From Candidatus Dadabacteria bacterium (lineage in GTDB: Bacteria; Desulfobacterota_D; UBA1144; Nemesobacterales; Nemesobacteraceae): a stretch of DNA of 64,000 bases. The notes under the pieces were generated by a model. That model did no database searches and had not been told where the DNA came from. It was given only the letters and a program-made list of their open reading frames with translations. The stretch is from assembly GCA_009837205.1 (NCBI GenBank), contig VXTZ01000022.1, positions 70,560-134,559 of the forward strand. The letters run 5' to 3'. Positions 3,143 to 29,947 of the stretch are shown in pieces (within the stretch, counting starts at the first letter, position 1; each line of letters opens with the position of its first letter). The position numbers and the translations under genes are program-made.

Positions 3143-3550
3143 ATGAGCGAAGATATTTTCAGACCGGATTTGTTTACAACCGACGATGAGGGCAGAGTGA
3201 GGCTGATTGCGGGTTACTGCAAGGAATCCGACAACTGGACCTTCCCTAGGTACCTTGCGGACCCAGTGAGTTTTTCAGATGACGTGGAAGAGAGACTTCT
3301 CAGCCCAACAGGCATTCTGCATTCCTTTACAGTTGTAAGAAGAAGCATGCCGGAATTCACGGTGCCCTATGTTCTAGCTCTTGTTGATTTTCCGGAAGGC
3401 GTGAGGGTCATGGCGCAGGTTGAAACCGAAGATCCTGATTCTCTTGAGTTCGGAGAGGAGATGGGCATTACGGTAGGGGTGATAAAGAAAGCGCCAGACG
3501 GAACGGATGTCAGTTCCTACAAGTTTATCCCGGTAAGGGAGAGCTCCTGA
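3143..3550 (+). CDS. DUF35-type Zn-ribbon/OB-fold protein (thiolase/acyl-CoA-associated family), stand-alone
   Basis: 135 aa with a conserved OB-fold C-terminal region (FPEGVRVMAQVET...) characteristic of DUF35/ChsH2-like proteins. Confidence 0.6.
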   Translation: MSEDIFRPDLFTTDDEGRVRLIAGYCKESDNWTFPRYLADPVSFSDDVEERLLSPTGILHSFTVVRRSMPEFTVPYVLALVDFPEGVRVMAQVETEDPDSLEFGEEMGITVGVIKKAPDGTDVSSYKFIPVRESS

Positions 3551-4912
3551 TCAGCCGATCTCATTGATCGTTTCCCTAAGGGTTTTTTCCACGGTTTCCC
3601 TTATTTCCGCGAGTCTTGATTCCGTCTGAGCTTCAAAACGAAGCACCAGGGCTGGCTGGGTGTTGGATGCCCGGAGAAGGCCCCATCCGTCCGGATACTC
3701 AACCCTGACTCCATCTATGTCAACCACTTCGTTTTGCTCCCCGAGTTTTTTCTTTACCGCTTCCGTTACCTGAAACTTGATTTCATCGGGACAATCCACT
3801 CTTATCTCCGGGGTTGCGAAGGTCTTAGGTAGTCCTGTAAGCAGTTCCGAGGCCTTCTTTCCCGTTTTCGAGAGAATTTCAAGAAACCGAAGTCCAGCGT
3901 AAAGAGCGTCGTCGTATCCGAAAAACCTGTTTTTAAAGAAGATGTGGCCACTCATTTCTCCACCGAGTTCGGCACCCTCCTTTTTCATCTTGTCCTTGAT
4001 TACCGAGTGGCCGGTTTTCCACATGATGGGATTTCCGCCGGCTTCCCGTATCTTGGAGAAAAGATTTCCTGAACACTTAACGTCCCCTATTATGGTCGCT
4101 CCCGGGTTCGTTTCGAGAAGATCGAGCGAATAGACAAGTAGCAGCATGTCTCCGCTCATTGAGTTTCCCTGCTCATCGACGATTCCTATCCTGTCCGCGT
4201 CCCCGTCAAACGCCAAGCCCACGTCGAGACCGGCTTCCACGATCTTTTTCTTTATGTCGGAGAGGTTCTCCTCGACCGTGGGGTCGGGGTGGTGGTTCGG
4301 AAAATCCCCGTCGGGGTCCATGTATAGCTCATGAACTTCGCAGCCGAATCTTCTGAGTATCTGCGGGCAGGCCACTCCGGCGGTTCCGTTGCCGCCGTCG
4401 GCCGCGACTTTTATCCCCGGTTCTATATGAAGATTCTCCTCGAAAAATTCAAGGTAGCTCTCAATTATATCTGCCTGTTTCTTTCTGCCCTTCCCTGTTT
4501 TGAACTTTCCCTCTTCGACCGATTCTCTTATTTTCTGTATGCCTTCGCCGAAAAGGGAGTTCTGCCCGACGCACATTTTAAGCCCGTTGTACTCAGAGGG
4601 ATTGTGGCTGGCGGTTACCATCACCCCGCCGTCAACGCCTGAGGTAAAGGTGGAGAAATAAACCATCGGGGTCGTTACCATTCCTATGTCGACCACGCTA
4701 ACGCCGGTTGACGTTATTCCTTCGCAGAGCGCGTCCCGAAATGCCGGGGAAGACTTCCTGCAGTCGTATCCAACGGAAACCTCCGATCCCCCGTCCTCGG
4801 CCACCATGGTTCCGTAGGCTTTTCCGATTCTCTCGACGACCTCTTCTGTGATGCTCTCCCCCGCTATGCCCCTTATGTCGTATTCTCTGAATATAGCTTT
4901 GTCGGGAATCAA
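3551..4912 (-). CDS. Phosphomannomutase/phosphoglucomutase (alpha-D-phosphohexomutase family)
   Basis: Active-site TASHNPSEYNGLK and metal-binding DGDADR motifs; 453 aa. Confidence 0.9.
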   Translation of the reverse strand: MIPDKAIFREYDIRGIAGESITEEVVERIGKAYGTMVAEDGGSEVSVGYDCRKSSPAFRDALCEGITSTGVSVVDIGMVTTPMVYFSTFTSGVDGGVMVTASHNPSEYNGLKMCVGQNSLFGEGIQKIRESVEEGKFKTGKGRKKQADIIESYLEFFEENLHIEPGIKVAADGGNGTAGVACPQILRRFGCEVHELYMDPDGDFPNHHPDPTVEENLSDIKKKIVEAGLDVGLAFDGDADRIGIVDEQGNSMSGDMLLLVYSLDLLETNPGATIIGDVKCSGNLFSKIREAGGNPIMWKTGHSVIKDKMKKEGAELGGEMSGHIFFKNRFFGYDDALYAGLRFLEILSKTGKKASELLTGLPKTFATPEIRVDCPDEIKFQVTEAVKKKLGEQNEVVDIDGVRVEYPDGWGLLRASNTQPALVLRFEAQTESRLAEIRETVEKTLRETINEIG

Positions 4913-5020: not shown

Positions 5021-6508
5021 ATGGTTTCTCCCTCCTATGAACAGTTCCTAGAGAACCTCGAACACGGGAATCTCGTACCCGTATGGGAGGAAGTTCTGGC
5101 CGATTACGACACTCCGGTTTCGGTTTTCAGGAAGATAGACTCGCCCGGTTACTCCTTTCTATTCGAAAGCGTGGAGGGCGGAGACAAGTGGGCGCGCTAC
5201 AGCTTTCTGGGCACGGAACCCTCGGTGGTATTCCGCTCGAAGGGCCAAAGCATCGAGATAATGTACTCGGACGGGGAAACCGAAACGTTCACGGGCGACC
5301 CGATTCTGGCGTTGCGGGACCTGCTTTCACGATACAGGCCGGTTTCTTCGGAGGAACTTCCGAGATTTCACGGTGGGGCAGTCGGTTACTTCGGTTACGA
5401 CATAATCAGATTTATAGAGGATATTCCCGATACCTCTCCTGATGAGCTCAAGGTCTGGGACTCCGTTTACATGGTAATGGATACCGTTTTGGCATTTGAT
5501 AACGTTACGAGCAAGATAAAGATCATCTCAAATGCCTATGTTCCCGACATTAAAAATGCGAGGGAGGAGTACGAAAAATCCCTTACGAAAATAGCCGAGC
5601 TTAAAAGCAGGCTTAGAAATTCGCTTAGCGAAAGGTTTACCAACGGTATTCCTCAAGATGTTGGCGAGGAAAAATTCAAGATCGAATCCAATTTCGAACC
5701 CGCACACTTCAAAGATGCGGTTCTCAGAACCAAGGAGTACATAAAATCAGGGGACATAATACAGGCAGTGATCTCCCAGAGATGGAAGACGGACCTGAGG
5801 GTCGATCCTTTCGATCTCTACAGGGCGCTCAGGATACTAAACCCTTCTCCGTACATGTTTTTTCTGAGGATGGGTGACGAGATACTCACAGGATCTTCTC
5901 CGGAGGTGATGGTAAGGGTCGAGGGGGAAAGAATCGCAAGCCGTCCGATAGCCGGGACGCGGCCGAGAGGAAAAACCGTCTCCGAGGACGAAAGCCTCGC
6001 GGCCGAACTCATTGCGGACCCCAAGGAGAGGGCCGAGCACATAATGCTCGTTGATCTCGCGAGAAACGATCTGGGAAGAGTTTCCAACACGGGCTCGGTC
6101 AAAGTGGACGATTTCATGATCGTGGAGAGATATTCCCACGTGATGCATATAGTTTCGAACGTGACGGCTCTGATTGCCGAGGGAGTGGATGCCTTTGACG
6201 TCATAAAGGCGACTTTTCCCGCGGGCACTCTTTCCGGAGCGCCGAAGGTAAGGGCAATGGAGATAATCGAGGAAACCGAGCCGACGACGAGAGGAGCATA
6301 CGGGGGATGCGTCTGCTACTTCAGTTTTTCGGGCAACATGGACAGTTGCATAACCATAAGAACGTTCGTGATAAAAGACGGCAAAATCTACATACAGGCG
6401 GGGGCTGGCATAGTGGCAGATTCGGATCCTGAAACCGAGTACCAGGAAACGGTTAACAAGGTAAAGGCCTTGGTGAATTCGGTTGAGCTTGCGGAGGAGG
6501 GACTCTGA
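5021..6508 (+). CDS. trpE: Anthranilate synthase component I; the track ORF begins at a TTG at 4985 and the ATG at 5021 is the alternative start
   Basis: Chorismate-binding-enzyme motifs (LVDLARNDLGRV, GTLSGAPKVRAMEII); about 500 aa. Confidence 0.9.
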   Translation: MVSPSYEQFLENLEHGNLVPVWEEVLADYDTPVSVFRKIDSPGYSFLFESVEGGDKWARYSFLGTEPSVVFRSKGQSIEIMYSDGETETFTGDPILALRDLLSRYRPVSSEELPRFHGGAVGYFGYDIIRFIEDIPDTSPDELKVWDSVYMVMDTVLAFDNVTSKIKIISNAYVPDIKNAREEYEKSLTKIAELKSRLRNSLSERFTNGIPQDVGEEKFKIESNFEPAHFKDAVLRTKEYIKSGDIIQAVISQRWKTDLRVDPFDLYRALRILNPSPYMFFLRMGDEILTGSSPEVMVRVEGERIASRPIAGTRPRGKTVSEDESLAAELIADPKERAEHIMLVDLARNDLGRVSNTGSVKVDDFMIVERYSHVMHIVSNVTALIAEGVDAFDVIKATFPAGTLSGAPKVRAMEIIEETEPTTRGAYGGCVCYFSFSGNMDSCITIRTFVIKDGKIYIQAGAGIVADSDPETEYQETVNKVKALVNSVELAEEGL

Positions 6509-7098
6509 TGACCGGGAACAAAAGGAAAGTGATTCTGATGATTGATAATTACGATTCCTTTACCTACAACTTGGTCCACTATCTGGGGGAACTCGGTCAG
6601 CAGATCGAGGTGAGGAGAAACGACAGTCTTGATTTGGGTTTCGTGGATGATCTTGACCCCGACATAATCGTAATCTCTCCCGGGCCCTGCACTCCCAAAG
6701 AGGCCGGGCTTTCGGTCGACATAATAAAAAGGTATGTCGGGGAAAAACCCATTCTCGGCGTCTGCCTGGGTCACCAGGCGGTGGGCTATGCATACGGGGC
6801 GAACATAATCCGGGCAGAGAGGCTTCTGCACGGAAAAACTTCCCCGATCCTTCACGACGGAAAAACCATCTATAAGGATCTTCCAAATCCCTTTGAAGCT
6901 ACGAGATACCATTCACTTCTGGTGGAAGAGGCATCCCTTCCGTCCGACTTCGAAATTTCCGCTTGGACCAAGGAGGGTGAAATCATGGGGATAAGGCACA
7001 GAGAACTTCCTGTTGAGGGCGTTCAGTTCCACCCCGAGTCCATCCTTACGGAGTGCGGGAAGGATCTTCTAAGAAACTTTATCGATTGCTATGGGTAA
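6508..7098 (+). CDS. trpG: Anthranilate synthase component II (class I glutamine amidotransferase)
   Basis: GVCLGHQ catalytic Cys motif and HPES; start overlaps the trpE stop (TGATG). Confidence 0.9.
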   Translation: MTGNKRKVILMIDNYDSFTYNLVHYLGELGQQIEVRRNDSLDLGFVDDLDPDIIVISPGPCTPKEAGLSVDIIKRYVGEKPILGVCLGHQAVGYAYGANIIRAERLLHGKTSPILHDGKTIYKDLPNPFEATRYHSLLVEEASLPSDFEISAWTKEGEIMGIRHRELPVEGVQFHPESILTECGKDLLRNFIDCYG

Positions 7099-7366: not shown

Positions 7367-9142
7367 ATGGGCCTTCTGGTTGAAGCTTTCATTTTTCTGC
7401 TGGCGACGATTGTTGTTGTTCCTGTCTGCCGTAAGTTCGGATTGAGCAGCGTGCTTGGCTACCTGCTTGTTGGATTGCTGATCGGTCCAGGCGTGTTCGG
7501 GCTTGTGGGCAATGCAACGGAAGTTCTGCACTTCGCTGAGTTTGGAATCGTTCTGTTGATGTTTCTCATCGGTCTCGAACTTCGTCCGCATCGTCTCTGG
7601 ACCATGCGGAGATTTCTCTTCGGGCTGGGTACAACCCAGATCCTTATCACCTCAGTCGTCATTGCGGTGTTCTGTTTCATGTTGCTGGGGATGGGGACGC
7701 CTGCGTCAATACTGATCGGGTTCTCTCTTGCTCTTTCAAGTACGGCATTTGTCGTGCAGTGGCTCGGGGAGCACAGGGAATTCAACAGGCCCCATGGACG
7801 TGCGGCTTTCGGCACGCTGCTTATGCAGGATGTCGCCGTTATCCCTGCAATAGCCTTAATAGGCATCTTGTCTTCTAAGCCCGGGGATTCGGCGTCGTTG
7901 AACTTGCTGCTTCTTATCGCTGTTGTGGCTGGATTCGTGGTTGCTCGGTTTACGCTTCGCCCCGCCCTGCGTTTTGTTGCCTCCACGGGAATCCATGAAC
8001 TTTTCACGGCCGCCGCGCTTACGCTTGTGACAGGCGCCGCCTTGGCGATGCATAGCATCGGTTTTTCAATGGGGCTCGGGGCTTTCGTGGCGGGCGTTAT
8101 GGTTGCCGATTCTGAGTATCGCCACCAGCTTGAAGCGGACGTAATGCCCTTTAAGGGGCTGCTTGTGGGTCTTTTCTTCATTGCGGTCGGCATGTCGGCC
8201 AACCTGGGTTTGTTGATCAGCAAGCCGCTTTTGATCGTCGGACTGACTGCGGTTCTCATGGTCGTAAAGTCGCTCGTTATATACCCGCTTGCCAGATTGC
8301 AGGGTCTTAGGCACGATGAAGCGGTAAGGACAGGACTTGTGCTTTCCCAGGGCGGGGAGTTTGCCTTTATTCTGTTTACAATAGGCGTTTCGGCGCAGCT
8401 TGTAGATCAATTCGTGGTCGATATTGCCGTTTTGGTGGTAACGTTGTCAATGGCGGCAACACCTTTTCTCGTTGCGCTCGGTTCCCGGTTCGGTGCCGAA
8501 AAGGACAGTGCACCCGCTCCTTTAGAGGAAACCCATGGATCGCAAAATTCCGTTATCATCGTAGGGTTTGGTCCGTTCGGCCAGACCGTAGCTCGGATAC
8601 TGACCATACTTGAAATTCCATTCACGGTGATTGAACTCGATCCCAAGAGGGTTGACTTCGTTCGTCAGTTTGCAAGCGAAACATACTATGGCAACGCGTC
8701 GAGCCTGCGGGTTCTGCTATCTGCTCATATTGACCGAGCTCCTGCGATCGTCGTGGCGATCGACGATGTCGAATCGTCTCTGAAAATAGTCAGTCAGGTA
8801 TCTAATTCCTTTCCGAACCTTAAAATTATGGCGCGCGCTAGGAATCGTTTTCACGAAATAAAGCTCCGCGAGCTTGGAGTGACCTCCGTGATTCGCGAGA
8901 CTCTGCTTTCAAGCCTTGCTCTTTCAACCCAACTGCTTGAGCATCTGGGGTTACCCCAGTCCGATGCGGCGGAGATAATCCAAGCTTTTCGGGAACACGA
9001 TGCCCAAGCTCTGGATAATCAGATGGCGGTTTACCACGATAAAACCGGGTTTCCTGAAGATGTGTTTGATACGACGCAGGAACTAAAGGAATTGTTCAAG
9101 GAAGATAAAAAAACCAGTCTGCGCGTCGAAAAGAAAACTTGA
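7367..9142 (+). CDS. KefB/KefC-family (CPA2) K+/H+ antiporter with a C-terminal RCK/TrkA-N domain
   Basis: N-terminal Na+/H+ exchanger helices and a GFGPFGQ Rossmann motif of the RCK domain; about 45 percent similar to E. coli KefC by eye; codon usage (CTG-rich Leu) differs from its neighbours. Confidence 0.85.
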   Translation: MGLLVEAFIFLLATIVVVPVCRKFGLSSVLGYLLVGLLIGPGVFGLVGNATEVLHFAEFGIVLLMFLIGLELRPHRLWTMRRFLFGLGTTQILITSVVIAVFCFMLLGMGTPASILIGFSLALSSTAFVVQWLGEHREFNRPHGRAAFGTLLMQDVAVIPAIALIGILSSKPGDSASLNLLLLIAVVAGFVVARFTLRPALRFVASTGIHELFTAAALTLVTGAALAMHSIGFSMGLGAFVAGVMVADSEYRHQLEADVMPFKGLLVGLFFIAVGMSANLGLLISKPLLIVGLTAVLMVVKSLVIYPLARLQGLRHDEAVRTGLVLSQGGEFAFILFTIGVSAQLVDQFVVDIAVLVVTLSMAATPFLVALGSRFGAEKDSAPAPLEETHGSQNSVIIVGFGPFGQTVARILTILEIPFTVIELDPKRVDFVRQFASETYYGNASSLRVLLSAHIDRAPAIVVAIDDVESSLKIVSQVSNSFPNLKIMARARNRFHEIKLRELGVTSVIRETLLSSLALSTQLLEHLGLPQSDAAEIIQAFREHDAQALDNQMAVYHDKTGFPEDVFDTTQELKELFKEDKKTSLRVEKKT

Positions 9143-9185
9143 TTAGTTTTTTACAAACTTGGGTGTTAGGCACCTACCAGAGTTT

Positions 9186-9545
9186 GCATATGTTGCTTCA
9201 GTTTTTCGGGCAACATGGACAGCTGCATAATCATAAGAGCGTTAGTTATAAAAGACGGTAAAATCTACATATAGGCAGGAGCCGGTATAGTGGCAGATTC
9301 GAATCCAGAAACCGAGTACCAAGAAACGGTTAACAAGGTAAAGGCCTTGGTGAAGTTGGTTGAACTTGCGGAGAACGGACTCTGATGACCGGGAGCAAAA
9401 AAGGGGATAATTTTGAGTTCTTGGATGATCTTGCCTCTGACATAATCGTGATCCCCCCTCCCCGGCCCTTGCATCCTCAAAGAAGCTGGCTTTCGGTCGA
9501 CATAATAAAAAGGTACGTCGGGGAAAAACCCATTCTCGGTGTTAA
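9186..9545 (+). pseudogene. Degenerate duplicate of the trpE 3' end plus the trpG 5' end (trpE'-trpG' fragments)
   Basis: 9190-9385 is about 88 percent identical to 6310-6505 and contains an in-frame TAG; the following trpG' part (MTGSKKGDNF...SVDIIKRYVGEKPILGV) lacks about 40 codons relative to the intact trpG and is then fused to unrelated sequence. Confidence 0.85.
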
Positions 9546-9741
9546 TCTATACTTTCATCACATAGTTTTTGAGAATAGCCAGGATGCAAGTTTCCAAGGT
9601 GTTGTGGGCAAACATCCTGTTACGAGCGCTAAGGGCACAATAGAGTTCGTGACCTCACCGGAAGTGACAATTCTTGAGTTTTCAGCCCGGTCTTGTATCC
9701 TAATCGCTTCAACTTCTTGTATATATTTGAGGAAGATATCA

Positions 9742-10386
9742 ATGGCTTCTAAGTTGCCCTATATGGTGTCAGTAGGATTGATTCCGAAGATACTAGAAAA
9801 AGTTCAAAATGCAAAGCGCCCTGAAAGGTTTACTCAAGATTTTCTGGAGACGAAACTCGGACACAGTGGGGGTAGTGCACGACCTATTATTCCGTTACTA
9901 AAACGTATGGGGCTTCTCGGTGCAGACGGAGTTCCAACGGTTCTATACGACCAATTTCGTAATCCTGAGACCCAAGGCTTCGCCGTTGCCAAAGGGATAA
10001 AGAATGCATTTACCGAACTTTTTGACCGGAATGAATATGTCTACGAATTGTCTCGTGAAAAGTTGACAGGACAGGTAATCGAGATCACAGGTGGAACAAA
10101 GGAAGACAGTCGCACCAGAGCCATTGTTGGCACCTTTTTGGCGCTGAAAGAGTTAGCGGACTTCGAGGCGGAGGATCCCCAAAATCTAGTCTCTGAACAA
10201 AAATCGGAAGCAACTTCTTTGGCACAGCCTTCGAGTGACGCTGAAAATGTATCTCCGATTACCGATAAAGACAACATTGAGTTGAGAGTAGGATACACAA
10301 TCAATCTCAACCTCCCAGAGACCAAAGATCCCGAGGTCTTCAATGCTATTTTCAGAGCTCTTAGGGAGAATCTATTGAAAAACTGA
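9742..10386 (+). CDS. Hypothetical protein, 214 aa, first gene of a coupled two-gene module
   Basis: Good RBS (GAGGAAG, 7 nt, ATG); the track merges it with the trpG' fragment as a 333-aa ORF; it has an acidic Ser/Glu-rich linker and a conserved-looking C-terminal segment; no family recognised. Confidence 0.55.
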   Translation: MASKLPYMVSVGLIPKILEKVQNAKRPERFTQDFLETKLGHSGGSARPIIPLLKRMGLLGADGVPTVLYDQFRNPETQGFAVAKGIKNAFTELFDRNEYVYELSREKLTGQVIEITGGTKEDSRTRAIVGTFLALKELADFEAEDPQNLVSEQKSEATSLAQPSSDAENVSPITDKDNIELRVGYTINLNLPETKDPEVFNAIFRALRENLLKN

Positions 10387-10967
10387 TGCGCGCAGAAGAA
10401 GCAATCAAATTATTTGGGTTAAACAACCTAACTATCGAGTCGGATATTCGACAGATAGAAAGGGAGTATGATATTGATCTTGGCCACAAGAAAGACCAAG
10501 AACAAAGCATAGATCAGACTTATTACCCTCAGTTCACTGAACGGCTTCGAACCGAGGCATCTCGTATGTCAACGAATTATGCAATCTTTTACTGTCTTGA
10601 GAATAGTATACGAGAAGTGATTGTCCAGCGTCTTGAGGAAGAGCACGGTACCAACTGGTGGAGTACTGCTGTACCGGAAATCGTTCGTAAGAACGCTGAG
10701 CGAAACCGAAAGAAAGAACTATCATCGGGAGTCACCCCCCGATCAGTAGAGCTAATAGATTTCACAACCTTTGGGGAGCTAGGCGAAATCATTAAGGCTA
10801 ATTGGGATATCTTCGGTGATATGTTTTGCGATGTTCAGGCAGTCGAAAGGGTCCTAGCGACGCTTAATACATTGCGTGCGCCGATAGCACACTGCAAAGC
10901 ACTCGCGGAGGACGAAGAATTGCGACTACATCTAAGTCTACGCGACTGGTTCCGGCAGATGGAATAA
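10386..10967 (+). CDS. HEPN-like alpha-helical protein (Rx4H motif), second gene of the module
   Basis: The start ATG overlaps the upstream stop (TGATG). The protein is 193 aa, predicted all-helical, with a C-terminal LRAPIAHCKAL motif that fits the Rx4-6H HEPN catalytic signature, resembling Swt1/Abi-type HEPN domains. Confidence 0.55.
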   Translation: MRAEEAIKLFGLNNLTIESDIRQIEREYDIDLGHKKDQEQSIDQTYYPQFTERLRTEASRMSTNYAIFYCLENSIREVIVQRLEEEHGTNWWSTAVPEIVRKNAERNRKKELSSGVTPRSVELIDFTTFGELGEIIKANWDIFGDMFCDVQAVERVLATLNTLRAPIAHCKALAEDEELRLHLSLRDWFRQME

Positions 10968-11381
10968 TATATTGGACATCCGGTTCTATACATTCCCAGC
11001 ACGCAAACTCCAGCGAATTTTATTCTCTAGGCTATTGCCGCATTTGAGTACCATACAGATGAGATAGATACAGCCCACCTGAAAGAAGATTTGTTGAGTA
11101 ATCAGGTTTCTGGTTCCGGAGATTTTCTCTAGAGTAGTCATTTACGGAGAAGCGATCCATCAATCCCGTAGCACGGGTGAATTTGTTTCGTCTTTATAGG
11201 TTATGTGACGTGCTTGAACTCTTCGAAGCAAAGATAAATCGGCGAGAACTGAGCAGATAAACACTCTGCCTAAGCCATTTGCTTTTTTCAGGTAGACTAG
11301 GGCGGTCAGAATAAGCAAGAGCTTGAAACCGTCAAAGGCGGTGATTTATATTCTGAGACTAAAATACGCAAGAGGAGAAAA

Positions 11382-13100
11382 ATGAAACTGCCTTTACGTC
11401 CGAGAGACGAAAAATACATAGGGAAAGGGACTCTTCCAAACGGCCCCTTAGACGATACCGACAAGTGGCTTCCGATAACCAGATACCTTGAAGCTGGGGC
11501 TGAGTCATACCCAGAAAAAACGATGTTCAGCCTCGGGGATTCAGACGGCAACGTGGCTGAAAGCTACAGTTACGGGGAAACCAACGCCTGGGCGAACAGG
11601 GTGGCAAACGGTCTTGTCGGGGAGTTCGGAATAAAAAAAGGGGACAAGGTCGGTATGTACATGCTCAACTGTTCAGAGTACGTCATATCGATTATCGCCG
11701 CGCACAAATCAGGCGCCGTTCAGGTCCCGATAAACAAGGATGAAAAAGGCGACAGGCTGGCTTACGTAATAAACTACTCCGAGATGCGGGTGCTCGTGGT
11801 CGACACCCAGAGCCTTCCCTACATAACTGAAATAGCGGACAAGCTCGAGAATCTCGAGGCGGTTTTTCTTGTCTCGGAGGATGCTCCGGCGGATATAGGG
11901 GGCATAAGAGCGCTTCCTTTTTCCACTTTTGATCAATACTCATCCGAAAACCCGGGAGTCGACGTGACGATTGCCGACAAGGAAAGGTGCATGTTCACTT
12001 CCGGCACCACGGGTATGCCCAAAGGTGTTATCCGCGATCACGGAGGGGTGATCATGACTGTACGCTCCTTCATACAGCAGCAAGGGCTAAGAAGCGAGGA
12101 CGTCTTGATGACGGTTCTTTCCCTAGGACACGCAAACGCCCAGGTGATGTGCCTTTTTGTCTCAATAGCCGTTGGAGGTTCAGCCGTTTTCTTCCCGAGG
12201 TTCTCCGCCTCCAATTTCTGGAAGTGGGCGGCGGGCTGCGGTGCGACCGGGGCGAACATGCTGGGAGCGGTGCCAGAATACATATGGGCTTCTCCGCTGT
12301 CAGAGTGGGATTCAAAGCATGGGATAAGGATGATGCTCTCGGGGCCCGCGCCTAAAAAGCTTCGCGAGTTCGAGGAAAGATTCAACACGAAGATAGTTGA
12401 AGGCTACGGATCTACTGAGATGGGGATGCCGCTCTGGAAGGACCCCGAGGATGAAAACCCGGGTTCATGCGGATTTCCCGTCGAGGGGTACCACCTTGAG
12501 ATAAGAGATCCCCTGAACACAGACGAGATCATAGACAAACTATGGGACGTGGACAAGAATCCCGCTCCCGCCGAGGAGGAAAAAGGACTTCTTTTCATAA
12601 AGCCCCTAGTTCCGCACACTACCCTCGATGAATATTTCAAGGACGAGAGAAGAACGAAAAACGCTTTTGACGACCAGGGATTTTTCAATTCGGATGACCT
12701 GTTTGCCGCGGGAACCGACGGGAGATACTACTTCATGGGCCGCTACAGCAGGATACGCGTGTCGGGAGAGAACGTTGATCCTGTAGCGGTAGCCGATGTC
12801 TCCGAGGAACATCCTTCAGTTCGGGAGGGGGTGGCCGTAGGCATTAGACTGCCCGACATATCGGATGACGAAATCAAACTCAACCTGATACTTAAGGAAG
12901 GGGCGAATTTCGATCCTGTGGAATTCTGCGAGTGGATGGCCGAGAAGGTGATGGTGGCCATGGTTCCAAGGTTCATTGAAGTCTACGAGGAGTTTCCGCT
13001 TACCTCAACCCAGAAAATCGCGGTTTCGGAACTAAAGGGCATATCCGGTTCCACATGGGACAGGCACGAAAGCGGACTCAAGCTAAGGTCAAGGAAGTGA
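11382..13100 (+). CDS. AMP-dependent synthetase/ligase (acyl-CoA synthetase family)
   Basis: FTSGTTGMPKGV adenylate-forming motif, GYGSTE, and a C-terminal Lys region; 572 aa. Confidence 0.85.
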   Translation: MKLPLRPRDEKYIGKGTLPNGPLDDTDKWLPITRYLEAGAESYPEKTMFSLGDSDGNVAESYSYGETNAWANRVANGLVGEFGIKKGDKVGMYMLNCSEYVISIIAAHKSGAVQVPINKDEKGDRLAYVINYSEMRVLVVDTQSLPYITEIADKLENLEAVFLVSEDAPADIGGIRALPFSTFDQYSSENPGVDVTIADKERCMFTSGTTGMPKGVIRDHGGVIMTVRSFIQQQGLRSEDVLMTVLSLGHANAQVMCLFVSIAVGGSAVFFPRFSASNFWKWAAGCGATGANMLGAVPEYIWASPLSEWDSKHGIRMMLSGPAPKKLREFEERFNTKIVEGYGSTEMGMPLWKDPEDENPGSCGFPVEGYHLEIRDPLNTDEIIDKLWDVDKNPAPAEEEKGLLFIKPLVPHTTLDEYFKDERRTKNAFDDQGFFNSDDLFAAGTDGRYYFMGRYSRIRVSGENVDPVAVADVSEEHPSVREGVAVGIRLPDISDDEIKLNLILKEGANFDPVEFCEWMAEKVMVAMVPRFIEVYEEFPLTSTQKIAVSELKGISGSTWDRHESGLKLRSRK

Positions 13101-14051
13101 GCTTGAGATAAAGTAGAGAAACGCTACGTAAATTATAAGCAGAAGAACCCCTTTCTTTTTTCCGACCCTGTTTTTACCAATCTGGGTTTTCCCGATTAGT
13201 AACACGAAAAGAACTGTAAGCAGGATAAGAAATGCGAATTCGGACGCGTATCCGAACATATCCCGGTTTACCTCTATGGGTCGGATAACCGCGACGAGAC
13301 CCAGATACCCGAGATTAAAGAAATTGCTCCCTATTATGTTGCCAACGACTATGTTCTGCTCTTTTCTCCACGCGGCCACGAGCGAAGCGGCAAGTTCCGG
13401 AAGTGAAGTTCCGAAGGCAACTGCCACGACCCCTATGAAAAGTTCGCTTATTCCGAGCTGTTCGGCGATATCTATTGCGCTGCTAACCAAAAGATGGGCG
13501 CTGACAGCCAGAAGCACTGAACCCGAGACTACGTAAAGAAGGATCTTCCACCCGCCGTCATCTGGCGATACGGAAAAAGCCTCGTTTTCTTCTGTGGATT
13601 TTCCGTAGGGGATGACCAAAAGGACGCCGAGCAGGAGAAACAGCAGCACTCCTTCACCTCTTTCGAGAGAGAATTCCGTGAGGCTGAGGCCGAAAGCGGC
13701 AAAAGTCATAAGCCCCATAAAAACAAGCGGAAGCCACTGCTCTTTCCACGCTTCTCTGCTTATCACTATTGGACTTATAAGAACCGTCAGGCCAAAAATA
13801 AGCCCGGTGTTGGCGATATTGCTTCCGACCATGTTTCCGACTGCTATGTCGCTTGAGCCCTCTATGACCGCCACCAAGGAAACCATGAATTCGGGAACGG
13901 ATGTTCCAAACGCAACCACGATAAGTCCCGCAAAAAAGGTGCCCATGCCGGTGAACGCAGCAACCCCGGAGGCGCCTCTAACGAGAAGACGGGCTCCCTT
14001 CCACAGAAGAGCGAAACTCACGGCAAAAATCAGCAGATTCAAAATTCCCAT
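13089..14051 (-). CDS. CaCA-family Na+/Ca2+ exchanger (YrbG-like)
   Basis: Two alpha-repeat motifs, GTSVPE and GTSLPE, in a 10-TM protein; its 3' end overlaps the acyl-CoA synthetase stop by 12 nt. Confidence 0.85.
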   Translation of the reverse strand: MGILNLLIFAVSFALLWKGARLLVRGASGVAAFTGMGTFFAGLIVVAFGTSVPEFMVSLVAVIEGSSDIAVGNMVGSNIANTGLIFGLTVLISPIVISREAWKEQWLPLVFMGLMTFAAFGLSLTEFSLERGEGVLLFLLLGVLLVIPYGKSTEENEAFSVSPDDGGWKILLYVVSGSVLLAVSAHLLVSSAIDIAEQLGISELFIGVVAVAFGTSLPELAASLVAAWRKEQNIVVGNIIGSNFFNLGYLGLVAVIRPIEVNRDMFGYASEFAFLILLTVLFVLLIGKTQIGKNRVGKKKGVLLLIIYVAFLYFISSSLP

Positions 14052-14210
14052 ATATCAGAAGCGGATTTCAGGCCGTATGCGGTCGGCCAGAGATTTTTTT
14101 CAGGAACCGGAAAAAAACGGGGTTTGCAATGAGACACCGATTAACCTATAATAGTCCGGGTGTTTTTTTCATTTCCAAATGTTATAAGACTGTTCAGGAG
14201 GTTACAGTAA

Positions 14211-15932
14211 ATGCAATTATTATTCAAACCGCGCGATGGCGTATATCTGGGAAGCGGAGATCTTCCCTTCGGTAAATTTGAAGACACTTCACTTTGGCAG
14301 CCGATAACCACAAATCTTGAGAAGGGTGCCGAGATGTTTCCCGACAAGGCAATGTTCAAGGTCGGAGACAGAGACGGAAACATCGTGGAGAGCTACACTT
14401 ATGCGGAAACCAACGCGTGGGCCAACAGGGTGGCAAACGGTCTTGCCCAAGGGTTCGGAATAAATAAAGGGGACAAGGTCGGCATGTACATGCTCAATTG
14501 TTCTGAGCACGTGATATCTATTATCGCCATACACAAGTGCGGCGGCGTGCAGGTTCCGGTAAACAAGGACGAGAAGGGGGAAAGACTCGCTTACGTAATC
14601 AACTACTCGGACATGAGAGCCCTCATTATTGACGAGGGGAGCATTCCTTTCATAGAGGAAATCGGCGACAGTCTGGAGCATCTTGAAGCAGTTTTCGTGA
14701 CGGTTGACAATCCACCTGAAAAAATCGGAGGCATAAAGACGCTTCCTTTCTCAGAATTTGACAGTTATGACGATACTAATCCCGGGGTGGACGTTACCAC
14801 TGCAGACATGGAGAGATGTATGTTTACGTCCGGTACCACGGGGATGCCAAAAGGGGTTGCCAGAGACCACGGAGGAGTGATCATGACGGTCCGTTCTTAT
14901 CTGCAGCAGCAGGGAATAAGGAACGACGACGTGCTCATGAGCATACTTTCACTCGGTCACGCCAACGCGCAGGTAATGTGCCTTTTCAGCGCCATGGCGT
15001 CCGGTGGGACTGCCGTGTTTTTCCCCAGATTCTCGGCTTCCAATTTCTGGAAATGGGCGGCCGGGTGCGGCGCGACATGCGTTAACATGCTGGGAGCGGT
15101 AGCCGAGTACCTCTGGGCCGCGCCTGAGAGCGAGTGGGATCAGAAGCACAACATAAGGATAATGCTGGGCTCCCCGGCTCCGAGGAACTTGAAGGAATTC
15201 CAGGAGAGGTTCGGAGTCAGGGTAATAGACGGATACGGTTCGACCGAGATGGGCATGGTTCTCTGGAAAGACCCCGAGGATCACCGCCCGGGTTCATCCG
15301 GTTTCCCCATGGAGGGATATTACGTCGAGCTCAGAAATCCCGAAGACATCGATACGGTGGTAAGACCGTTCTGGGATTCTACCGACGACATTACTCCTCC
15401 CGACGATGCCAAGGGGCTTCTTTTCGTAAAGCCGCTTGTTCCGCATACGACCCTGAATGAATATTTCAAGGATGAGAGAAGAACCAGAGAGGCTTTTGAC
15501 GATGACGGCTTCTTCAATTCGGACGATCTCTTCGCCAGAGGTATCGATGGGAGATACTATTTTGTCGGAAGGTTCAGCCGCATCAGGGTTTCAGGCGAAA
15601 ACGTGGATCCGGTAGCCGTCGGGGACGAGGCGATGCAATATCCCGCGATTCAGGAAGCCATTGCGGTCGGTATAAGGCTCCCGAACGTTTCGGATGACGA
15701 GATCAAGCTCTGCGTTACGCTCAAGGTGGGCGAAGAATTCGATCCGATTGAGTTTTCCAAATGGATGGCCGAAAGGGTTATAGTGGCCATGGTGCCCAGG
15801 TTCATAGAGGTTTACGAGGATGGATTCCCGGTAACCGCGACCCAGAAGGTCAAGGTCGCCGAAATAAAGGAAATCACCGAGAATACCTGGGACAGAAACG
15901 AGACGGGCCTCAAGTTCAGCGCCAGAAAGTAG
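14211..15932 (+). CDS. AMP-dependent synthetase/ligase, close paralog of the 11382 gene
   Basis: About 75-80 percent amino-acid identity with the 11382-13100 product over the full length and the same motifs. Confidence 0.85.
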   Translation: MQLLFKPRDGVYLGSGDLPFGKFEDTSLWQPITTNLEKGAEMFPDKAMFKVGDRDGNIVESYTYAETNAWANRVANGLAQGFGINKGDKVGMYMLNCSEHVISIIAIHKCGGVQVPVNKDEKGERLAYVINYSDMRALIIDEGSIPFIEEIGDSLEHLEAVFVTVDNPPEKIGGIKTLPFSEFDSYDDTNPGVDVTTADMERCMFTSGTTGMPKGVARDHGGVIMTVRSYLQQQGIRNDDVLMSILSLGHANAQVMCLFSAMASGGTAVFFPRFSASNFWKWAAGCGATCVNMLGAVAEYLWAAPESEWDQKHNIRIMLGSPAPRNLKEFQERFGVRVIDGYGSTEMGMVLWKDPEDHRPGSSGFPMEGYYVELRNPEDIDTVVRPFWDSTDDITPPDDAKGLLFVKPLVPHTTLNEYFKDERRTREAFDDDGFFNSDDLFARGIDGRYYFVGRFSRIRVSGENVDPVAVGDEAMQYPAIQEAIAVGIRLPNVSDDEIKLCVTLKVGEEFDPIEFSKWMAERVIVAMVPRFIEVYEDGFPVTATQKVKVAEIKEITENTWDRNETGLKFSARK

Positions 15933-29816: not shown

Positions 29817-29905
29817 CCGAAAAAGTCTGCAGGTGGAAATGATTTTTCACGCTTAGAACCGAGTTGGCCTTCGGTCATTGCGTGAATATATGTGGGTGGG
29901 TGACA
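29817..29905 (+). repeat. Conserved 3' element, copy 1 (hairpin CCGAG-ttggcc-TTCGG inside a CACGC...GCGTG outer pairing)
   Basis: About 85 percent identical to 30071-30155. Confidence 0.6.
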
Positions 29906-29947
29906 CTCCCCAGTAGTTCAGTATTTTTAATCACAGGAGTGTTTGTT

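Follow-up and report, generated by a model that had tools for sequence, protein, structure and literature searches.

The sequence at about nt 9168–9545 is a pseudogene relic composed of the 3' end of trpE and the 5' part of trpG. It has no function of its own and forms the left edge of an accessory segment in a sponge-associated Candidatus Dadabacteria genome, within an interval that is a recombination hot spot. We consider it likely that an allele of foreign derivation was captured behind kefC and then exchanged by homologous recombination, and that the relic is its left end in decayed form. Coordinates refer to the window, i.e. the entire 64,000 nt stretch of DNA that was analysed, unless a contig is named; contigs and loci of relatives are given as L numbers.

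The resident genes to which the relic corresponds are intact and lie on the plus strand, to the right of a phosphoglucomutase gene on the minus strand. The trpE gene (anthranilate synthase component I, nt 5021–6508) carries the Pfam domains Chorismate_bind and Anth_synt_I_N, and its final ~220 nt are the stretch to which the relic corresponds. It is followed by trpG (glutamine amidotransferase, nt 6508–7098; Pfam GATase, E = 3.5e-60), the protein product of which is identical on 14 contigs, and by a kefC-like K+/H+ antiporter gene (nt 7367–9142; Pfam Na_H_Exchanger and TrkA_N). Across nt 6000–6999 there are no mismatches to L003, a strain in which the site behind kefC is empty. The next 25 nt (nt 9143–9167, plus strand) begin as native kefC-downstream sequence and pass through a decayed junction into trpE-derived DNA; when aligned to native sequence from behind kefC and to the contig L102 and L014 junctions, the native part can be followed to ~9160.

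A decayed duplicate of the end of trpE and the start of trpG had been described at this position by the first-pass annotation, and aligning the two copies at the nucleotide level confirmed the repeat, at a level far above chance. Nucleotides 9185–9400 match nt 6308–6523 over 216 nt without gaps at 89% identity (BLAST E ~1e-77), and nt 9410–9542 match nt 6632–6761 at about 82–84% identity over ~134 nt. Comparison with other junction alleles suggests that the trpE-derived part begins at ~9168, to the left of the 9186/9190 originally given. This part (nt 9168–9385, plus strand, ~71 codons) carries a CAG to TAG change at nt 9272–9274 and ends with the trpE stop codon, TGA (nt 9383–9385), and the TGATG overlap of trpE stop and trpG start is preserved (nt 9383–9387). 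The trpG-derived part (nt 9385–9545, plus strand) comprises codons 1–7 and about 41–85. It has a 99-bp in-frame deletion between nt 9406 and 9407, a 4-nt insertion (nt 9456–9459) and a 1-nt deletion after nt 9487, the last two of which jointly restore the frame. Homology stops abruptly at nt 9545, after ...EKPILGV and immediately ahead of the catalytic Cys motif in trpG. The relic is truncated on both sides, at the 5' side of trpE and the 3' side of trpG. The in-frame TAG and the abrupt end agree with the initial reading of the lesions, while the deletion had been estimated at ~120 bp. The relic displays homology to functional genes elsewhere in the genome (the resident trpE-trpG), disabling lesions and relaxed selection relative to orthologues, as expected of a pseudogene. 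Searches for tRNA genes found none, Rfam families gave no match within nt 8900–11500, and promoter and terminator signals included nothing specific to the relic.

It had also been considered that the similarity might be an assembly artefact such as a collapsed repeat, and this is ruled out. The relic occurs at 99–100% identity, with the same junctions, in at least eight assemblies that were produced from different samples with different assemblers (L010, L012, L014, L015, L016, L017 and L018, and the Logan contigs L002/L013). Logan unitigs end precisely within the longest run common to the relic and the resident copy (28–32 nt), which is where a real but diverged repeat should make them break. 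The reproduction of the junctions across assemblies, together with these break points, excludes a collapsed repeat or chimera. An apparent additional deletion in L015 was found to be a run of 10 Ns.

The relic is considerably diverged from the resident genes, with synonymous differences as numerous as those between species. For the trpE part, dN is 0.105 and dS 0.43 (dN/dS 0.25), and for the trpG part dN is 0.127 and dS 0.56, with an overall dN/dS of 0.2–0.3. Intact copies compared among themselves at similar dS gave dN values of 0.01–0.07 and dN/dS of 0.03–0.13. In the trpE part, 13 of the 19 differences from the resident fall at third codon positions. The relic is ~86.6% identical to the resident and equally similar to sister species L047, L024 and L023; it agrees with most relatives at several third positions at which the resident departs from them, and also has changes at otherwise invariant sites. 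Over 383 alignment columns, rare states number 36 in the relic, compared with nine in an intact second copy on L102 (see below), and the relic branches basally to the clade with kefC, its branch being long. Because dS is 0.43–0.56, the distances to sister species are equal and dN/dS is relaxed, the relic is probably derived from functional trpEG of another lineage, with ~8–10% neutral decay added, and did not arise by a recent duplication of trpEG in the resident genome. No further copies of the relic were present in 80 genome loci of relatives, each of which carried the resident trpEG only.

Two origins had been put forward in the first-pass annotation, and one of them, an island that was acquired from a relative and brought adjoining trp DNA with it, agrees with these data. 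The other was a tandem duplication of the resident genes. In its fuller form, an in-situ duplication of the unit trpE 3' end–trpG–kefC would have been followed by deletion of most of the second unit, or its replacement by the cassette, with neutral decay of the rest. The junction has the geometry that such an event would produce, as sequence downstream of kefC is joined head to tail to trpE at about nt 6288–6292 of the resident copy. A duplicate made in place should nevertheless be closest to the resident and differ from it evenly across codon positions, and neither is the case: synonymous divergence is high, differences are mostly at third positions and the relic is about equidistant from several species. 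In addition, strains with a background divergence of 0–0.5% are without the relic. An origin by tandem duplication is accordingly quite unlikely.

The relic is the leftmost part of an accessory segment of ~2.2 kb (about nt 9160–11380), the left boundary of which was placed correctly at the relic from the start. The segment starts ~20 nt past the kefC stop codon, and the remainder of it carries the genes for a DUF5343 protein and a HEPN_Swt1 protein. A non-coding tail (nt 10,968–11,283, plus strand) travels with these genes; it is ~70% identical to L102 nt 9233–9558 and is missing from empty-site strains. The right end of the segment proper is at ~11,283, but a strongly diverged, cassette-linked allele of the region upstream of the acyl-CoA synthetase gene AMP1 (nt 11,382–13,100) continues to nt 11,381. 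This upstream region (nt 11,284–11,381, plus strand) is 100% identical among carriers and 76–79% identical to those empty-site alleles that aligned. Among strains with a TrpG protein identical to that of the window, the relic and the cassette are present in the window, L012, L014, L015, L016, L017 and L018, whereas L003, L005 and L006 have the order trpG-kefC-AMP1 with neither relic nor cassette.

This last arrangement shows that kefC is native to the clade and not cargo of an island. It had been read as the inserted part of an A-B-A' arrangement, but it lies between trpG and AMP1 in every close relative (all those in which TrpE is at least 88% identical), whether or not these carry the fragment. 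It is missing in deeper relatives; across at least 30 Dadabacteria species the deep gene order is trpE-trpG-AMP1, and kefC was gained in the closer clade. The comparison of synteny proposed at the outset, as a check of whether kefC and nt 9545–11380 are absent from relatives, showed absence for the latter interval, which is missing at empty sites, and not for kefC. Similarly, the absence of trpD/C/B/A downstream had been taken as a sign of rearrangement; none of these genes occurs downstream of trpG in any Dadabacteria relative examined.

The interval between kefC and AMP1 is a recombination hot spot, with cargo that varies with the Dadabacteria species. Loci showing different cargo before AMP1 (L026, L031–L038, L043 and L051) carry an AAA_14/DUF4143 ATPase, an AbiEii pair, an FRG-pentapeptide protein, an MTase-HNH arrangement, DDE transposases or a DruA-like/DDE fusion. 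Several other variable sites were seen in the neighbourhood. L003 and L005 (nt 12,625–12,640) are without ~112 bp downstream of kefC that are found in L006 (nt 13,965–14,075); a 10-bp repeat (AAAGAAAACG) borders this gap, which alters the KefC C-terminus (595 versus 591 aa). L006 and L007 have a second variable site between trpG and kefC (nt 9865–12,193) that carries DUF5131 and glyoxalase-like genes on the minus strand, with an IS1595 transposase farther upstream. Insertions also occur in L150 (nt 1322–2545, a TnpB/OrfB_IS605 gene), L157 (nt 3383–3978, a pair of HigB-like toxin and HTH antitoxin) and L144 (nt 565–1678, a SocA/Panacea-domain pair).

The two genes of the cassette had been described as a novel module, but both correspond to a candidate system in PADLOC, PDC-M34. 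The DUF5343 gene (nt 9742–10,386, plus strand; Pfam DUF5343, E = 6e-46) matches the PDC-M34A profile (PDLC04589, E = 3e-52) and the Swt1-like HEPN gene (nt 10,386–10,967, plus strand; Pfam HEPN_Swt1) that of PDC-M34B (PDLC04592, E = 5e-41). Both matches are full-length, and the genes are adjacent with a one-base overlap at nt 10,386. The pair is thus a candidate defence system by profile similarity. Compared with L102 and L103, dN/dS is 0.12–0.14 for the DUF5343 gene and 0.05–0.08 for the HEPN gene, and values for the cassette genes of 0.05–0.16 overall indicate purifying selection. In ~30 unrelated metagenome contigs the HEPN gene always adjoins a DUF5343 gene, and trpG is never a neighbour. 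A scan of JGI metagenome contigs with the HEPN protein returned 40 loci, none of them from Dadabacteria and none with trpG beside the pair. A literature search for DUF5343 found no mention of it in the library searched.

Public annotations give the DUF5343 gene a different extent, an ORF of 333 aa (nt 9385–10,386) that starts at the ATG of the dead trpG. The frame is open from this ATG into DUF5343, the 4-nt insertion and 1-nt deletion compensating each other, and it could be argued from this and from the public calls that the relic is functional, either as the N-terminus of a fused protein or as a leader or promoter that the cassette requires. Among the best DUF5343 homologues listed, however, nearly all are about 207–219 aa (~214 aa) in length, and both the Pfam and the PADLOC profiles begin at the ATG at nt 9742, which is preceded by a Shine-Dalgarno-like GAGGAAG within the cassette spacer/leader (nt 9546–9741, plus strand). 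In L102 and L103 the trpG that precedes the cassette is complete and separate from it, having a stop codon of its own, and elsewhere the pair does not adjoin trpG at all. A function for the relic is extremely improbable. Given the length of the homologues and the start codon and Shine-Dalgarno-like site of the cassette itself, the 333-aa call appears to be a chimeric, open-frame artefact, and the real DUF5343 protein is predicted to be 214 aa, starting at nt 9742.

Comparison of strains showed that the whole allele was recently exchanged between strains ~3% apart. The window and L012 differ by ~3.3% in the flanks (about 10 mismatches per 300 bp), but by only six mismatches in total across nt 8840–11,650, a recombination tract that is common to these diverged carriers and extends from the 3' end of kefC through relic and cassette into the 5' end of AMP1. 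Relative to the empty-site strain L003, the background divergence of 0–0.5% rises slightly in the final 200 bp of kefC and reaches 5–14% at nt 11,284–13,083. The boundaries of exchange fall within kefC and AMP1. Presence or absence among close strains, varied cargo and tracts that end in flanking genes are the features of a hot-spot allele; its spread proceeds through homologous recombination within the genes on either side, for which an integrase is not needed. The lack of an integrase, which had left the mechanism unclear in the first-pass annotation, is therefore no obstacle.

A duplicated gene 3' end beside acquired genes is also the classic signature of site-specific integration, in which a prophage or island enters the 3' end of a gene and supplies a replacement 3' end. 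No integrase or recombinase ORF was found in nt 9143–11,381, where DUF5343 and HEPN_Swt1 are the only genes encoded. A search for att-like direct or inverted repeats at the ends of the segment, which had been suggested as a check, gave short chance matches only, none of them pairing nt 9143–9170 with nt 11,250–11,300, and no direct repeats bound the segment. The duplicated piece is moreover interior to trpE-trpG, ending in the middle of trpG, and the exchange tracts end inside flanking genes, which makes the scar of an integrative element very improbable.

Allelic differences were also seen to the right of the cassette. AMP1 and a paralogous acyl-CoA synthetase gene, AMP2 (nt 14,211–15,932), share 70–77% nucleotide identity and flank a Na/Ca exchanger gene (nt 13,306–14,205, minus strand). 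The AMP1/AMP2 pair is conserved in those Dadabacteria loci that are long enough to include both genes, and the duplication is therefore old. The exchanger gene shows ~20% divergence between the window and L012, with ~3% in its flanks, and protein identity across species is bimodal (72–80% versus 95–98%), which suggests two old allele classes that are swapped by recombination. Farther along the window there is a 100-nt direct repeat (nt 29,821–29,920 and 30,076–30,175; 82% identity, 255 nt spacing).

The closest non-identical DUF5343 protein (84% amino acid identity) is encoded on L102, a 391-kb contig that carries what appears to be an intact counterpart of the relic. The gene order is trpE-trpG-kefC, an interval of 243 bp, then a full-length second trpG (trpG2, 196 aa) followed by DUF5343-HEPN-AMP1. 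L102 is conspecific with L026 (98.7–98.9% identity in both flanks), which has an ATPase gene at this site instead. The 243 bp consist of ~22 nt of kefC-downstream sequence and the last ~71 codons of trpE, the frame of which is undamaged (dN/dS 0.02–0.05). This second trpE end is 97% identical to trpE of the co-occurring L144 type, but trpG2 is distant from that type (dS 0.31), and the L102 copy is on this evidence a mosaic that recently recombined with functional genes. An arrangement of this kind with full-length genes had been foreseen as pointing to an ancient, stable duplication. The arrangement itself is indeed present in L102, but it does not represent an ancient stable paralogue, as the copy is foreign-derived and mosaic. 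The relic and the L102 second copy do not group together and have a single rare or derived state in common across the 383 columns, and a single paralogue lineage comprising the two was rejected.

Both L102 trpG2 and L103 trpG end with a TGA stop codon and have a ~35-nt 3' flank that is homologous to that of the kefC-less L156/L157/L040/L043 type and shows no homology to the trpG-kefC intergenic region, the sequence that tandem duplication would predict. L103 trpG is 93.9% identical to trpG of the kefC-less L157, and its closest relatives are resident genes in genomes that have neither kefC nor the cassette. For L102 trpG2, the nearest full relatives (93% nucleotide identity) are residents of genomes with kefC that likewise do not carry the cassette. 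L103 is a possible donor-type locus, the contig of which begins inside trpG.

Alignment with L103 also accounts for the right end of the relic. Nucleotides 9410–9542 of the window align to L103 nt 79–208, and nt 9534–10,979 to L103 nt 852–2299; the spacer (nt 9546–9741) is homologous to L103 nt 864–1082 and, from nt 9621 onward, to L102 from nt 7884. Relative to the L103 type, the window allele is missing ~645 bp between the 9-bp repeats TCTCGGcGT and TCTCGGaGT. The junction (nt 9534–9545, plus strand; 9-bp repeat TCTCGGNGT) fuses codon 85 of trpG with the spacer that precedes DUF5343. The alignments show a deletion between these repeats, by which the 3' part of trpG2 was lost and from which the abrupt end after ...EKPILGV results.

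The left junctions can be aligned in a single register across the window, L102 and L014, although 20–30 nt of the window junction are too decayed to prove identity with the other two. L014 (GCA_026706695.1, JAPOYE010000044.1) starts, at nt 1–150, with a kefC 3' end that is joined without decay to trpE at the same join point as in the window. Its full order is kefC 3' end, junction, trpE', trpG, kefC, decayed junction, relic and cassette, and the Logan unitig L155 starts and ends exactly where the alternative contexts diverge. L014 may be either a real two-unit tandem array or a chimera of strains. The two units, and the bounding of L155 exactly at the unit ends, are what the tandem duplication discussed above would give.

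The history that we prefer, capture of a foreign allele followed by exchange, would have begun in a kefC-less genome of the trpE-trpG-(hot spot)-AMP1 type, in which a block consisting of the trpE 3' end, trpG, its flank, PDC-M34 and the AMP1 upstream region was contiguous. This block would have been captured once behind kefC, its right end joined via homologous recombination in AMP1 and its left end by an illegitimate join ~20–25 nt past the kefC stop codon, i.e. by homology-facilitated illegitimate recombination. Later spread among lineages would have occurred by ordinary homologous recombination. In the window allele the extra trpG, presumably redundant because a resident trpG was already present, would then have decayed. 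The geometry and the kefC-less type of flank behind trpG2 fit such a capture, though the junction is decayed and no genome with the donor order trpE-trpG-PDC-M34-AMP1 without kefC was recovered in the collections searched. Descent of the relic and the L102 copy from a single capture would rely on the register that their junctions share and on recombination with functional trpEG that is assumed to have followed, for which L102 only provides support. Two further observations count against capture: L014 has a second, undecayed junction with a whole trpE'-trpG-kefC, as tandem duplication or insertion-duplication would give, and trpG2 of L102 has its nearest full relatives in kefC-containing genomes.

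The same end structure would arise if kefC, rather than the cassette, was the incoming DNA. A circularised or repeat-flanked unit of trpE 3' end–trpG–kefC would have entered trpE-trpG of a kefC-less, cassette-bearing genome; insertion-duplication would leave trpE'-trpG of the host behind kefC, and the junction would travel with the kefC unit. This would explain the identical junction register beside very different second copies, the kefC-less type of flank behind trpG2 and the two-unit order of L014, and kefC is itself a gain within Dadabacteria. The backbones of the window and L102, however, match kefC-containing strains without a second copy on both sides, so that the odd-one-out DNA is the second copy and cassette and not kefC, and a circular or repeat-flanked kefC unit was seen nowhere but in L014. 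Entry of kefC in this manner is unlikely.

It is a speculative and rather unlikely idea that the truncated trpE end and trpG2 serve as a portable homology arm, making the allele a recombinase-free mobile unit with a slice of a housekeeping operon as its 'attachment site'. If true, the match to trpE-trpG, genes that are universally present, would let the cassette (or kefC) recombine into Dadabacteria with different gene orders, and the mosaic, refreshed copy of L102 and the two-unit order of L014 would be traces of such traffic.

Several known systems resemble the locus in part. In E. coli K-12, a duplicate of the icd 3' end is reportedly found beside the e14 element, and the likeness is that acquired DNA is bordered by a short duplicate of a gene end, which comes from another lineage and so differs from the resident in mainly synonymous ways. 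Unlike icd/e14, the relic is without integrase or att sites and is separated from the resident genes by the native kefC; it spans a junction of two genes, is truncated on both sides and owes its transfer to homologous recombination. In transformable bacteria, homology-facilitated illegitimate recombination combines one homologous anchor with one microhomology join. Here too, the diverged tract of the segment runs into AMP1, the other side is abrupt and free of homology, and part of the recipient's intergenic DNA is replaced, but in this case the event would be an old one, the junction in the window being decayed. As at other defence or accessory hot spots between core genes, cargo varies and alleles are swapped via recombination in the flanks; the site differs from these in being very small (one to three genes), in belonging to uncultured sponge symbionts and in having one allele that brings along a copy of a neighbouring biosynthetic gene. 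The likeness to PDC-M34, with two proteins matching the profiles full-length from adjacent, overlapping genes as in ~30 other contigs, is that of the neighbouring cassette and not of the relic, and concerns a candidate defence system only.

The locus resolves well a scar of a kind already known, in which the remnant of a gene borders horizontally exchanged DNA in a hot spot. Its analysis corrects the public annotation, in which the 333-aa 'DUF5343' protein is a probable chimeric gene call, but the worth of the relic is as a dated marker of gene exchange. Together with its L102 counterpart and the empty sites, it provides a base-by-base record of a candidate defence cassette moving among Dadabacteria without an integrase, by recombination in conserved flanking genes after what would have been one illegitimate capture.
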